A stretch of DNA of 64,000 nucleotides. Source: a virus. Lineage: Duplodnaviria; Heunggongvirae; Uroviricota; Caudoviricetes. Every line of letters begins with the position of its first letter. The stretch's first letter is position 1. Where the stretch lies: IMG/VR virus record IMGVR_UViG_638275541_000001. The stretch is one strand, 5' to 3'. Positions 3,497 through 57,071 of the stretch are shown here, one piece after another. The notes under the pieces were generated by a model, which made no database searches, was not told where the DNA came from, and saw only the letters and a program-made list of their open reading frames with translations. A program made the position numbers and the translations under genes.

Positions 3497-3521
3497 AAGG
3501 CTGCTTCGGCGGCCTTTTTTA
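3497..3521 (+). terminator. rho-independent terminator
   Basis: AAGGCTGC-TTCG-GCGGCCTT hairpin followed by T-run. Confidence 0.7.
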
Positions 3522-3581
3522 TTTGTATTTTGTGCAGAGTGCTGTATAATTGTTGTCACGATAAACTAAACAGGAGAACCA

Positions 3582-6936: not shown

Positions 6937-7129
6937 CTTCTGTAAAGACTGTTCTATCGAAATGTTCGGACGTGATACAGGTGACTTAAAAGGTCTTATC
7001 ACTGAAGAGGACTTTAAAGCTGGCTATGCAATGCCAGTAATCTGTGAAGGATGTGGATGTATCTGGGTAGACCACGAAGGACAACGTGTAAAACCTTCAG
7101 AAGATAAAGAATCTTGGGAGAGATGTTAA
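6929..7129 (+). CDS. small Cys-rich (zinc-ribbon-like) protein
   Basis: internal ATG start (MADFCKDCS...CEGCGC); AAGAGG RBS upstream. Confidence 0.4.
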   Translation: MADFCKDCSIEMFGRDTGDLKGLITEEDFKAGYAMPVICEGCGCIWVDHEGQRVKPSEDKESWERC

Positions 7130-7915
7130 ATGGGTATTATAAAAATCATCAATGGTGATATCTTTGCTGCATTTGATAAAGGTAAGTTTGACATCATTGG
7201 TCACGGTTGCAACTGTATGAATTTAATGGGTGCAGGTATCGCTGACAAGATTTCTAAACTTTACCCAAAAGCATATGAGACCGATACAGAAGTTTATCTA
7301 TATGCAGGTGGTATAGGCCACAAACCCTGTGAAAATTTACTGGGTAATTTCTCCGTAGCACGTTTAAAACAAGGTCGTATAGCTAACCTTTACACTCAGC
7401 TTAAGACTGGTAAAGATGCACGATACAGTGCTTTAGAGTCATCTTTGAAACAGCTTAACAGATACTGTGAAGTTAACCAGTTGAAGAAGGTTGGTCTACC
7501 TATGATTGGTGCAGGTATCGGTGGACTTGACCCGCAAGCTGTCACAGTTATCATCAATCAGGTCATGAAGAGTGTAGATGTTTATCTGTATGTCTATGAA
7601 GGAGAGATGTACCACAAGTTACGCTCAGGTTGGAAGAACTACTGTGAACCAGAATACTTTGCAGGCGTAGCTGTGTTCACGGATAATGCAGTTACCCTCT
7701 TCAGACGAAGAAAAGGTAAGATACATCAAAGTAACCCTCCGGTTGAAAAGATGTCTCTAAGTAACGCTCTAGTTACCCACCTGTCGAAGAGCAATCACAG
7801 AATTGCAGTAACATTTGGCAGTGATGCAGATACTTATATCTATGCAAGAACTGATGAGGATATCGAGTTAATCTTCTCTTCACCAGAGCTTACCTTCTTA
7901 GACGCAAAGAACTAA
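7130..7915 (+). CDS. macro-domain protein (ADP-ribose binding/hydrolase-like)
   Basis: IINGDIF...FDIIGHGCNCMNLMGAGIA and GLPMIGAGIGGL match macro-domain signature blocks. Confidence 0.5.
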   Translation: MGIIKIINGDIFAAFDKGKFDIIGHGCNCMNLMGAGIADKISKLYPKAYETDTEVYLYAGGIGHKPCENLLGNFSVARLKQGRIANLYTQLKTGKDARYSALESSLKQLNRYCEVNQLKKVGLPMIGAGIGGLDPQAVTVIINQVMKSVDVYLYVYEGEMYHKLRSGWKNYCEPEYFAGVAVFTDNAVTLFRRRKGKIHQSNPPVEKMSLSNALVTHLSKSNHRIAVTFGSDADTYIYARTDEDIELIFSSPELTFLDAKN

Positions 7916-7986
7916 GAAACTTCGTAGTATATTCACAATAGACTAAGCCTTTCTTATCTGGTAAATTTTTCAGGTAAGGAGGGCTT

Positions 7987-8167
7987 TTTCATTTCAGATT
8001 TGTGCAGGTAGAGTTCTGTAGAGAAATCTATAGAGAAAATTTTGAACTCCAAAGAGAAAATTCATTTTCAAACTGTGCAGGTAATCTCCAAAGAGCTTTT
8101 TCATTTTCAAAACGTGCAGACCCCGCTCAGGTCGGGCAAGAAAAATCATTTTAGAATTGTGCAGGTA
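7987..8167 (+). repeat. four direct copies of a ~23 bp element (TTCATTTTCAAANTGTGCAGGTA)
   Basis: copies at ~7987, 8059, 8097, 8145 upstream of the early-operon promoter. Confidence 0.7.
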
Positions 8168-8180
8168 GGTTTTTATAGAG

Positions 8181-8222
8181 AGCCAGCCCAGCCCCTCTCC
8201 CCCTCTTACTCCCCCTCCCCCC
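8181..8222 (+). repeat. polypyrimidine (C/T-only) tract
   Basis: CCCAGCCCCTCTCCCCCTCTTACTCCCCCTCCCCCC in an otherwise AT-rich genome. Confidence 0.8.
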
Positions 8223-8343
8223 AAAAGTCAAGAGAAAAATTTGTAGCGGATTGAAAAATAATTCTTGATTTGCGTTCTGTTTTGTGGTAGTCGTGTGCGC
8301 CCGTTCATTTCCCAACCTTACAAAAAATATTTAATAAAAACCG

Positions 8344-8372
8344 TTGACACGCCAAACAAGTTTACGTACTAT
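8344..8372 (+). promoter_or_regulatory. strong sigma70-type promoter (TTGACA-17-TACTAT)
   Basis: consensus -35, 17 nt spacer, near-consensus -10, ~50 nt upstream of first small early gene. Confidence 0.6.
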
Positions 8373-8422
8373 TTGCATCAGACGGGCAATCAAGCCACTT
8401 CCTAAACTGGAGAATCTAAAAA

Positions 8423-8629
8423 ATGCTTTACAGTCGTGAATTGATGGTTACAACCAACGTTAATACAAATGTAAAACGCTTTTACATGCAAGTATGTGGC
8501 GCATGGTCCAGAATTTCAGAAGCTGACTATTGCAACTATGTAGAAACAGCTATAAACTCTAATTGCTACCTTACAAGAAATACTAAGAATTTTACAAGGC
8601 AGACAGCAATTTACTATTACGATAAATAA
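8423..8629 (+). CDS. small early protein (unknown)
   Basis: ATG preceded by conserved leader CCTAAACTGGAGAATCTAAAAA. Confidence 0.5.
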   Translation: MLYSRELMVTTNVNTNVKRFYMQVCGAWSRISEADYCNYVETAINSNCYLTRNTKNFTRQTAIYYYDK

Positions 8630-8643
8630 AAAGTACTTTACAT

Positions 8644-8672
8644 GGGGCTTAAAAGTCTGTAAAGTAAGCCCC
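8644..8672 (+). promoter_or_regulatory. intergenic leader hairpin, type A (GGGGCTTA...TAAGCCCC + CAGATAAAGAG)
   Basis: GC-clamped hairpin followed by conserved CAGATAAAGAG and RBS leader; copies also at 9246 and 10313. Confidence 0.5.
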
Positions 8673-8716
8673 AGATAAAGAGCTTTACCACTTAATCCTA
8701 AACTGGAGATTCAAAA

Positions 8717-9229: not shown

Positions 9230-9245
9230 AGAGATTTCTTTACAC

Positions 9246-9273
9246 GGGGTTATCAAGCTGATAAGATAGCCCC
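9246..9273 (+). promoter_or_regulatory. intergenic leader hairpin, type A variant
   Basis: GGGGTTATC...GATAGCCCC: different stem sequence, same pairing, followed by CAGATAAAGAG. Confidence 0.45.
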
Positions 9274-9315
9274 AGATAAAGAGATTTATCAACTGTCCTA
9301 AACTGGAGATTCAAA

Positions 9316-9612
9316 ATGAAATTATCAAATAAAGTTCGTGAAAATCTAAGCAAGTTACTAAACAAAATTGATTTCATTGAAACATCAAGGAATAATCATG
9401 ATGTTATGGAATGGTTACATGGAAAAATAAAAGGCCGTCGTGTAGTGATTTGCTTATGGAATAGTTGCAGGGAGTATAAAAAACCTGTATTGCAAGTCAA
9501 TATTTATGATGACACTTTTAAAAGTCCAGTAAAGTCTAAAAGCGATTTATTAGAATCCTATGAGATAACTGTAAATGGCAAAGTATCACGTAAAGAGGAA
9601 ACACCATGTTAA
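9316..9612 (+). CDS. small early protein (unknown)
   Basis: conserved leader + ATG. Confidence 0.5.
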   Translation: MKLSNKVRENLSKLLNKIDFIETSRNNHDVMEWLHGKIKGRRVVICLWNSCREYKKPVLQVNIYDDTFKSPVKSKSDLLESYEITVNGKVSRKEETPC

Positions 9613-12639: not shown

Positions 12640-13830
12640 AGCTTTATTATCTCGTTAGCTATCTTGTGAACTACTAAAAAGGGCTTGGTAGCTCCTTTAA
12701 AGTATGTTATAGGGGCTATGAAGTTACTTCAAAGTAACGTAAAAGGGGCTTAAAAGTTACGTAAATGCTAGCCCCCTTAACATTTTCTTAACAATTTCTT
12801 AACAAATCCTACATAGTTATGCTTGTTAGAGACTTGTTAAATCTCTGTTAAGACCACGTAAAAGCCTTGTAAGAGTCTTTGGCATAGCCTTAAAAGCTCC
12901 TGTAAAGCCCTATAAAGAGCTATCCATACAGTTGAGGGGTAAATACTAGGGAGAGACTTAAAAGAGCTTATAAAGAGCTATAGAGAGCTTTTAAGAGGTA
13001 TGTTTAAGGAATCACTAAGAAAGGAAAGGGAACGATAAGAAAGAAGTAGTGACCATGTTAATAGCTTGTTAAAAAGGTTAAACACTTGTTAGGAACTTGT
13101 TAATTATCTTAACAAAATAACTCTTTAAAATTAACTTGTTAGCTCTTGTTAGTCATCTGTTAAGCATCTGTAAAGCCTATTCAGCACTTGTTAGAAAACT
13201 GTTACATCCTTGTTAGTTCTGTTAAGAAACTGTTAAGACCTTTGAAGAGTTGTTAAGAAGATGTGAGAACTGTTAAGAGATTGTTAAGGATATTTTAAAA
13301 TTTTGCAAAGGGGGTGTTAAGGGGCTGTTAAGGGCTACCAAGCAGATATACATCCTAATCAGATATTTTTCAGTTCCTTCAAAGACCCTAAAAAATGACT
13401 TGATAGCTCTATTTTATAAAAATTTTAAAATTCTGAATAATTACCTATACAGTCTTTTAAAAATACAGGTAGAAACAGGCTTATAAGATACCTTGTTAGT
13501 ACCGTGTTAGACCTTGTGAGATAAGGTCTGTAAAGATATTCCTGTTAAGTTTGTTAAAACAGTCTATATAGAGGCTTAGTAATACCTAGTGAACACCTAT
13601 AGAGGGTATCATAGCTGACATAGAGATTAAGAGGTGTATAGGAGCTTCTAAGAGGGTATAGAGAGATGGTTAAGGTGATTATATAGGCTGTTAAGAAGGC
13701 TTGTTAGAGGGCTAGTTAGAAGGGTTATACAGAGGGGCTATTAAGACCACTAGATAGTTACTAAGATACTATATAGTACTATATAACTATATAGAGAGTA
13801 AGATTAAGAAGGTTGTTAAGAAGGATAGAT
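12640..13830. repeat. ORF-free region with dispersed and tandem YTGTTARG repeats in both orientations
   Basis: ~30 copies of CTTGTTAG/CTGTTAAG and reverse complement TTCTTAACA; no ORF >60 aa between convergent transcription units. Confidence 0.8.
13045..13335 (+). repeat. core tandem array of TGTTAAG units with ~10-11 bp period
   Basis: e.g. 13207-13292: TGTTA motif recurs every 10-11 nt for 8 consecutive units. Confidence 0.75.
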
Positions 13831-56741: not shown

Positions 56742-57071
56742 TTAATCTGCCAACCTTAAATTGAAATTAACACCAAATTTTTCACACACTCCCAACATAT
56801 ACTCAAGGGAAACATTCCCAGTGAGGTGGATTATGTTGGATACACGAGCCTGAGAGATACCGCAAATTTTAGCAACTTGTTCTTGAGAAAGACCTCTGGA
56901 TTTAATCTCTCTCTTAAAACGATGTGCAACGAAGTCTCTCATTTCGTCTACATCCATTGGACAAATATAACTCTCCATTTCAGCCTCTCTATCAGCCTCC
57001 CAATCATCTTGTGGGGCATAAGGGTCAAAAACATCATTCATCTTTCTTCTTCCGTTTGCGTGAAGTGTCAA
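56742..57071 (-). CDS. HTH DNA-binding protein
   Basis: LSQEQVAKICGISQARVSNI helix-turn-helix. Confidence 0.45.
   Translation of the reverse strand: MTLHANGRRKMNDVFDPYAPQDDWEADREAEMESYICPMDVDEMRDFVAHRFKREIKSRGLSQEQVAKICGISQARVSNIIHLTGNVSLEYMLGVCEKFGVNFNLRLAD

Follow-up and report, generated by a model that had tools for sequence, protein, structure and literature searches.

The element examined here is a cluster of four direct repeats in the genome of Salmonella phage FO1a (JF461087; species Felixounavirus felixO1). We analyzed a 64,000-nucleotide stretch of this genome, referred to below as the window; a window coordinate equals the record coordinate minus 75, and window coordinates are used throughout. 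The repeats sit in a 507-bp non-coding gap (7916-8422) between two genes. Its 5' neighbor is gp13 (7130-7915), which encodes a macro-domain protein annotated as a "phosphatase", and its 3' neighbor is gp15 (8423-8629), the first gene of a terminal block. This block is a run of small genes, each with its own promoter, transcribed toward the right end of the genome. Between the two genes lie, in order, the Rho-independent terminator of gp13, the four repeats, a C-rich tract, an A/T-rich imperfect inverted repeat and the promoter that drives gp15.

All four repeats are on the same strand and, taken as 23-bp copies, occupy 7988-8010, 8061-8083, 8100-8122 and 8145-8167. A sequence-only reading of this DNA had reported four such repeats, and they are real: the 23-mer it described is exactly copy 2, and the other three copies agree with it at 18-19 of 23 positions by manual count. 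Described as a 26-bp motif on the plus strand, repeat 1 covers 7983-8008 (core TCATTTCAGATTTGTGCA, 7989-8006; 36.4 bits), repeat 2 covers 8056-8081 (core TCATTTTCAAACTGTGCA, 8062-8079; 35.7 bits), repeat 3 covers 8095-8120 (core TCATTTTCAAAACGTGCA, 8101-8118; 35.9 bits) and repeat 4 covers 8140-8165 (core TCATTTTAGAATTGTGCA, 8146-8163; 32.9 bits). TCATTT-N7-GTGCA is invariant in all four cores, and the start-to-start spacings are 73, 39 and 45 bp. A search of the 64 kb with a degenerate 19-mer, allowing up to two mismatches, returned five matches where 0.65 were expected, and none of 100 shuffled sequences reached five. With a position weight matrix, the array copies scored 33-36 bits, whereas the runner-up in the 83-kb genome reached 15.6 and the top score among 20 shuffles was 13.4. 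Because the matrix was derived from the arrays themselves, the high array scores are partly circular. The repeat cluster is far beyond chance.

The array is shared widely among relatives of FO1a. A BLASTN search with the gap matched 287 phage records, covering the genera Felixounavirus, Suspvirus and Mooglevirus, and in the Erwinia phages of the genus Kolesnikvirus the repeat segment was the sole part of the gap that was matched. Overall, we found the array at every Ounavirinae locus examined, including these four genera and a distant metagenomic lineage (L114), an uncultured relative recovered by a pattern search of IMG/VR that is syntenic with FO1a at ~46-58% amino-acid identity. Further metagenome matches added more Felix-, Susp- and Moogle-type arrays. 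There are usually four copies per array, with three in Si3-type phages and five in L114, all on the transcribed strand. The order of elements was the same in every lineage: macro gene, terminator, repeats in the transcribed orientation, C-rich tract, promoter and small-gene block. The three-repeat sub-lineage, comprising Si3 (L061:4340-4560) and three metagenomic members (L205, L251 and L268), also has a different terminator and a variant gp13 C-terminus, which shows that the number of repeats can be altered by recombination at the array's left edge. Searching bacterial genomes with a two-copy pattern yielded unrelated repeats only, none of them in Enterobacterales, and no array. Similarly, viral and metagenomic pattern matches outside Ounavirinae were coding repeats or chance matches, and no analogous repeats were found after the macro gene in more distant phages.

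Across 44 distinct copies, the consensus is G-N-W4-TCATTTY-N-RR-W-N-Y-GTGCA-K, an asymmetric, bipartite motif of ~26 bp. TCATTT, GTGCA and the G at position -6 are invariant, the 7 nt between the two blocks are variable, and the motif comes in two variants, GTGCAGG (Felix-type) and GTGCATAGG (Erwinia/L114-type). The sequence-only reading had named conservation in related phages as one way to check its proposal, and on this comparison the repeats hold up well. For example, between FO1a and SUSP1 the repeats are 89% identical, the spacers 66% and the third codon positions of gp13 60%; between FO1a and the Erwinia phage phiEa21-4 the respective values are 67%, 33% and 33%. Since their identity exceeds that of both the spacers and the third codon positions, the repeats themselves are under purifying selection. 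Of the non-coding sequences we came across in the early region, none is as well conserved throughout the subfamily as this array. The spacing between copies differs between genera (37/37/39 bp in the Erwinia phages and 73-77/39-41/45 bp elsewhere), and strict helical phasing is therefore not required. Within the motif, conservation is block-wise, with variable positions between the putative contact blocks, as in a transcription-factor site. The two invariant blocks are ~12 bp apart, about one helical turn, which fits a single protein contacting two successive major grooves.

The most informative result is a fifth copy of the motif outside the array. The 83-kb FO1a genome has exactly five occurrences of TYATTT-N7-GTGCA, all on the plus strand: four in the array and one at 3519-3536, the core of a motif copy at 3513-3538 (TTATTTGTATTTTGTGCAG). 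The whole Moogle genome likewise contains it exactly five times. The fifth copy lies between the rIIB terminator, which it directly follows, and a perfect TATAAT (3546-3551), the composite element spanning 3513-3551. It covers approximately positions -38 to -18 of the 3546-3551 promoter, that is, the -35 region and spacer. The fifth copy hence overlaps core promoter elements, and the four array copies do not. We also considered the array copies as promoters in their own right and rejected this reading, as none has a -10 element at the spacing seen in the fifth copy. Six variants of the composite element from Felixounavirus, Mooglevirus and metagenomic relatives share the form TTATTTG-N5-TGTGCAGR-N6-TATAAT, in which the N5 and N6 sequences vary and their lengths are fixed; the fifth copy scores 24.8-24.9 bits in Mooglevirus and the metagenomic relatives. 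Scanning from window position 7000 on, we found one terminator-like site only between this promoter and the array. Because of this single site and the gene layout, the 3546 promoter would be expected to drive an operon that ends just before the array. The genes that follow rIIB encode an SLT-like protein, polynucleotide kinase, spanin-like proteins, small unknown proteins and the macro protein.

Downstream of the repeats, the plus strand carries the C-rich tract (8181-8222), with 28 C in 42 nt. The sequence-only reading took it for 42 nt of pure pyrimidine; it is indeed rich in pyrimidines (35 of 42), but its seven purines leave pure runs of only 16 nt (8192-8207) and 14 nt (8209-8222), with a single A between them. 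The accompanying remark that the tract is very atypical for this genome was borne out. The minus strand of 8192-8222 reads GGGGGGAGGGGGAGTAAGAGGGGGAGAGGGG, the sole canonical G-quadruplex motif in the 64-kb window, with four runs of at least three G and loops of 1-7 nt, and its G4Hunter score of -2.64 is the strongest in the window, the next strongest being 1.84. FO1a-type Felixounaviruses, Suspvirus and Mooglevirus all have a C-rich tract after the array, and Kolesnikvirus has a shorter one. FO1a, Si3, the relatives L029-L033, SUSP1 and Moogle have the canonical four-run pattern; typing phage 1, the Erwinia phages and Barry-type phages do not. The Barry-type Felixounaviruses have unrelated sequence in place of the tract, with its G-rich side on the opposite strand, and their repeats are unchanged. 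These losses and this replacement imply that the tract cannot be essential to the function of the repeats. By this comparison, it is ancient but replaceable, and dispensable in some relatives.

The tract is followed by the inverted repeat (8226-8270; arms AGTCAAGAGAAAAATTT and AAATAATTCTTGAT), which is nearly invariant in Felixounavirus, Suspvirus and Mooglevirus. Its pairs never vary in the alignment (columns 320-364), and there is accordingly no evidence of covariation. Its minus strand carries an invariant TTGACT (8228-8233) that faces the G-rich strand of the tract. The inverted repeat might serve as a second operator or as a weak promoter directed leftward. Next come a UP-like A/T-rich stretch (8320-8343) and the plus-strand, sigma-70-type promoter of gp15, TTGACA (8344-8349)-N17-TACTAT (8367-8372), of which TTGAC and TA.TAT are invariant in the relatives' alignment. 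The repeats and tract had been placed "immediately upstream of the strongest early promoter", which overstates both points: the promoter starts 177 bp past the last repeat and ~120 bp past the tract, and other promoters of the small-gene block score equally, at 10 of 12. An enhancer-like action on this adjacent promoter, also suggested by that reading, is not supported either, given that the array spans 177-355 bp upstream, its spacing is unphased and variable, and the downstream promoters of the block have no such array. The block itself is built of repeated small-gene cassettes, at 8630-8716, 9230-9316 and on to ~12.7 kb. In each of them, a terminator hairpin lies between a -35-like TTTACA and a -10-like TAAAGT or TAAGAT, followed by an identical ribosome-binding stretch, TCCTAAACTGGAGATTCAAAA.

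A protein-binding control region, the first of the functions proposed from the sequence, emerged as the best reading: the repeats are under purifying selection in five lineages, are non-coding, show no RNA structure, and have a further copy over a promoter. From these observations we infer protein binding, and we consider it likely that the array is functional protein-binding DNA. More specifically, and more tentatively, we favor an operator-like cluster of double-stranded DNA sites for one sequence-specific protein, probably encoded by the phage, with a role in transcription. One protein, binding over the -35 region and spacer of the 3546 promoter, would control the operon that runs from the first gene after rIIB to the macro gene. 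Its simplest action at that promoter would be repression by occlusion, the alternative being activation of the class-II type. The four strong sites at the end of the operon would form a high-occupancy cluster preceding the terminal block, and this cluster could be a cooperative anchor (for looping or titration), a polar roadblock or an insulator that separates the operon from the terminal block. As its neighbors, the inverted repeat and the C-rich tract would be further elements of one control region.

As to the protein, we propose as a candidate binder, and as a candidate solely, an XRE/HTH_3 helix-turn-helix protein of 99 amino acids encoded on the minus strand (56745-57041). It is 70% identical to its Moogle homologue, which is the sole annotated transcriptional regulator of that phage. 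The C-terminal extension of the gp13 protein was also considered; this idea is weakened by L114, which keeps the array yet has a macro-only protein of 148 amino acids. When the copies were compared by eye with the consensus sequences for IHF, Fis, CRP, Fur, the marbox, sigma-E, sigma-54 and sigma-32, none of these fitted all copies.

Several points weigh against a transcriptional regulator. Palindromes are the usual targets of XRE-type regulators, in contrast to the asymmetric 26-bp sites here, and Pfam revealed no DNA-binding domain in 17 neighboring or replication-module proteins. No array copy overlaps a promoter, the distance to the nearest -35 element being the 177 bp given above, and the unphased spacing (37-45 and 73-77 bp) argues against a rigid cooperative complex. 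The fifth copy is itself open to other explanations. Initiators of iteron origins also bind promoters, and its promoter footprint is therefore compatible with an origin. It could share ancestry with repeat 1, as both follow a terminator T-run. Moreover, part of its 5' half overlaps a plausible -35 element (TTGAAA-N16-TATAAT in Moogle), and its conservation may partly reflect ordinary promoter constraint. Finally, phiEa21-4 lacks a fifth copy in the 19 kb scanned, and the promoter link is consequently not universal.

Known systems offer partial parallels to such a set of operators. In phage lambda, CI bound at OL and OR mediates long-range looping, and the CII direct repeats TTGC-N6-TTGC straddle the -35 region of pRE, pI and paQ. 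Like these CI and CII site clusters, the FO1a motif has few copies per genome, one of them over a -35 region, and is bipartite with a variable center; as with the lambda operators, the genome also has a cluster of several sites at a distance of kilobases. Unlike them, the FO1a array copies lie off promoters and are asymmetric direct repeats of ~26 bp at irregular spacings of 37-77 bp, and their sequences are not similar to those of the lambda operators. The PeSL cassettes of T4-like phages, reportedly described by Arbiol and colleagues in 2010, are said to combine a terminator stem-loop with an early promoter. FO1a shares with them a plastic block of small early-type genes with repeated terminator, promoter and ribosome-binding modules. 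In contrast to those cassettes, the four FO1a repeats have neither a hairpin nor a -10 element, and they form one array instead of recurring once per cassette.

A possible, if doubtful, alternative is that the array and the quadruplex-forming tract together constitute a cis-acting "start site", serving Felix O1-like phages either as replication origin or as a polar checkpoint of DNA entry that retains the genome once the terminal early genes are inside, with TCATTT-N7-GTGCA defining a new iteron family. If this were true, the iterons of the start site would be read by a protein that also controls a promoter. Considered separately, an iteron-type replication origin seems fairly unlikely. Here, an initiator would bind the four repeats, and the GC-rich and A/T-rich neighbors would act as clamp and unwinding region; in a variant of this idea, a G-rich leftward transcript across the C-rich tract would form an R-loop that primes a T7-like replisome. 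The layout is suggestive, as a single locus holds three to five asymmetric sites of 20-26 bp in the same orientation, where iterons comprise at least three direct repeats of ~17-26 bp, and these are followed by the GC-rich tract and by a conserved block of 72% A/T (8223-8275, compared with 61% for the whole gap). This order of repeats, GC-rich and A/T-rich segments resembles that of the RSF1010 and RK2 oriV. However, no strongly A/T-rich unwinding element stands out, the best 40-nt window in the gap having 31 of 40 A/T.

Other evidence on an origin is similarly divided. The fifth copy would suit one, as initiators often regulate promoters too. The replisome is T7-like, with a gp4-type primase-helicase found here and a family A polymerase (PMC3185647); this feature was weighed both against an iteron-type origin and, as such replisomes can start from transcripts, in favor of one. 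The invariant TTGACT facing the G-rich strand would fit the R-loop variant; its putative leftward promoter, however, has a poor -10 element (TAAGAG) in FO1a, and the C-rich tract that such a transcript would cross is the one replaced in Barry-type phages. No Rep-type initiator was detected by Pfam in the 17 proteins mentioned above, which are part of the proteome, and the helicase-primase is of the gp4/DnaB type. The array lies within a co-directional gene block and not at a divergent junction, and GC skew tracks gene orientation only, with no switch at the array. A cluster of DnaA boxes (TTWTNCACA) was rejected for FO1a, whose array contains no site with one mismatch or less and whose repeats are three mismatches away. 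In the Erwinia phages, four sites within repeat copies match the DnaA box at 8 of 9 positions, which does speak for an origin.

For comparison we used the iteron origins lambda ori, P1 oriR, F oriS, RK2 and RSF1010 oriV, and T4 oriE. Like plasmid and phage iterons, the FO1a sites number within the range of three to five, are asymmetric, measure ~20 bp, share one orientation and one locus, and precede GC-rich and A/T-rich segments. They differ in their spacing, which is ~40 bp instead of ~22 bp and unphased, and in the lack of a Rep-type gene among those scanned, of a marked unwinding element and, in the Felix O1 group, of DnaA boxes. An identity of 8 nt, ACAAATTG, with what we take to be the F iteron may be due to chance.

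It is unlikely that the C-rich tract is the functional element, forming non-B DNA (a minus-strand G-quadruplex, a plus-strand i-motif or an H-DNA triplex) that serves as a barrier or topological element to which the repeats are accessory. The sequence-only reading had raised non-B DNA, and such structures are possible in principle: besides its unique quadruplex motif and extreme G4Hunter score, the tract is a near mirror repeat (27 of 31 positions), and Suspvirus, Mooglevirus and Kolesnikvirus have a C-rich tract at the corresponding position. Its impurity and the loss of the four-run pattern in typing phage 1 and the Erwinia phages count against a conserved structure, as does the replacement in Barry-type phages with the repeats intact, and mirror symmetry says little in a sequence made up of two letters.

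Nor do we find it probable that the array is an evolutionary by-product, in which tandem duplications of a terminator tail and the upstream half of a promoter were kept as recombination linkers with no binder. Such an origin would explain why repeat 1 and the fifth copy both start in a terminator T-run, and it would fit both the repeated cassettes of the downstream block and a copy number that ranges from three to five. Neutral copies, however, should decay, whereas the cores are 67% identical across genera in which third codon positions are saturated at 33%, and the conservation within the motif follows its blocks.

A polar DNA-entry checkpoint of the kind known from phage T5 appears quite improbable. 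The right end of the genome, with its small early genes, would enter the cell first, and the array, by itself or through a protein bound to it, would pause or anchor the DNA until early proteins had been made. In T5, the iss region is a conserved untranslated repeat region with DnaA boxes at the inner border of the first-step-transfer DNA (Davison, bioRxiv 10.1101/866236). The FO1a array is comparable in that untranslated conserved repeats lie at the inner border of the terminal block in three genera, at the inner edge of host-takeover-type terminal genes transcribed toward the end; all copies share one orientation, as a polar signal would require, and the DnaA-box-like copies of the Erwinia phages can be read in the same direction. 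The T5 region, which is Repeat Region 3 in the left terminal repeat, has features of its own: it extends over 1.2 kb within a terminal repeat of 10 kb, consists mainly of inverted repeats and palindromes, and has eight paired DnaA boxes. FO1a, by contrast, has four direct repeats outside a direct terminal repeat of 0.6 kb, with no paired or consensus DnaA boxes. We found no report of two-step DNA transfer for Felix O1-like phages or Ounavirinae, and the fifth copy, in a promoter 4.4 kb further in, would be left without a role.

We also examined whether the array marks the genome terminus itself, and rejected this. Felix O1-like phages have direct terminal repeats of ~0.6 kb (PMC4837284, PMC8303462, PMC11350853). 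The published terminal repeat sequences of UAB_Phi87 and UAB_69 map to 12769-13341, a homologous segment of 573 bp located 4.6 kb downstream of the array, and the corresponding distance from the array to the terminal repeat region is ~5.4 kb in Moogle and ~7 kb in phiEa21-4. The homologous segment is full of short CTTAACA, TGTTAAG and CTTGTTA repeats, genes of the plus and minus strands converge there, and the GC content reaches its minimum just past it. In L114 (560-790, minus strand), the array is immediately followed by ~200 bp rich in TTAACA-type repeats that resemble these motifs. The L114 array may adjoin a genome end; the contig stops ~770 bp past the array.

Finally, it is extremely unlikely that the region encodes a small protein or a small RNA. 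Open reading frames of 50-76 amino acids exist on both strands of the FO1a gap, and three records annotate genes over the repeats: gp14 in GenBank (8042-8254, plus strand, TTG start, 70 amino acids, over repeats 2-4 and the tract), wV8 gene 13 (7726-7890) and Moogle115, on the opposite strand (Moogle 82112-82336). These frames differ among relatives in strand, frame, start and extent, and none is shared; Coenus has none of at least 40 amino acids, and the repeat spacings are not multiples of three. On these grounds, gp14, wV8 gene 13 and Moogle115 are probably mis-annotations. A structured RNA was rejected as well: with fold z-scores of +0.6 and +1.1 on the two strands, the region folds no better than shuffled sequences, the alignment fold of the gap revealed no covariation outside the terminator, and a search of the region against Rfam gave no match.

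The terminator of gp13 (7945-7986, plus strand) consists of a 17-pair stem and a T tract, and its T-run passes straight into repeat 1. It is annotated as a terminator in the wV8, Barry and AYO145A records, and the pairs of its stem are preserved via one-sided changes in the relatives' alignment. The gp13 protein itself has a TARG1/OARD1-like macro domain (residues ~1-160), which we take to belong to the same branch as the DarG antitoxin, followed by a C-terminal extension of ~100 amino acids with no family match. Extensions of this type are missing from L114, whose protein is the macro domain only, and from the T4-type Tk.4 proteins. It is possible that gp13 is a counter-defense enzyme acting against ADP-ribosylation. 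In an unrelated 95-kb viral contig (L042:3595-3790), palindromic GTAGTATACTAC units are repeated after a macro-domain gene, a different motif in an analogous place. Two records attributed to other hosts, GU169904 ("Staphylococcus phage SA1"; 128471-129644) and MG065664 ("Campylobacter phage A132"; 69678-70676), contain DNA 89-92% identical to the Felix O1 region and are probably contaminated or mislabeled.

According to the Felix O1 genome paper, the temporal regulation of transcription in this phage is not known (PMC3185647). The literature we searched offered nothing usable on Felix O1 transcriptomes, origins or intergenic essentiality, and no replication-origin report; nor did it contain the repeat sequences, and the genome descriptions of Felix O1 and wV8 list other direct repeats, not these. 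Direct-repeat arrays that bind proteins are well known, but this motif family and its subfamily-wide five-site pattern appear to be undescribed. Felix O1 is a classical phage for the typing and biocontrol of Salmonella, and few coliphages are isolated as commonly as its relatives. For this group, the analysis corrects three database annotations of hypothetical genes over the repeats. The array and its promoter copy provide a five-site motif set that is directly usable as bait for the regulator. The array also marks a boundary, where the operon ends and the plastic terminal block begins, that phage engineers should leave intact.

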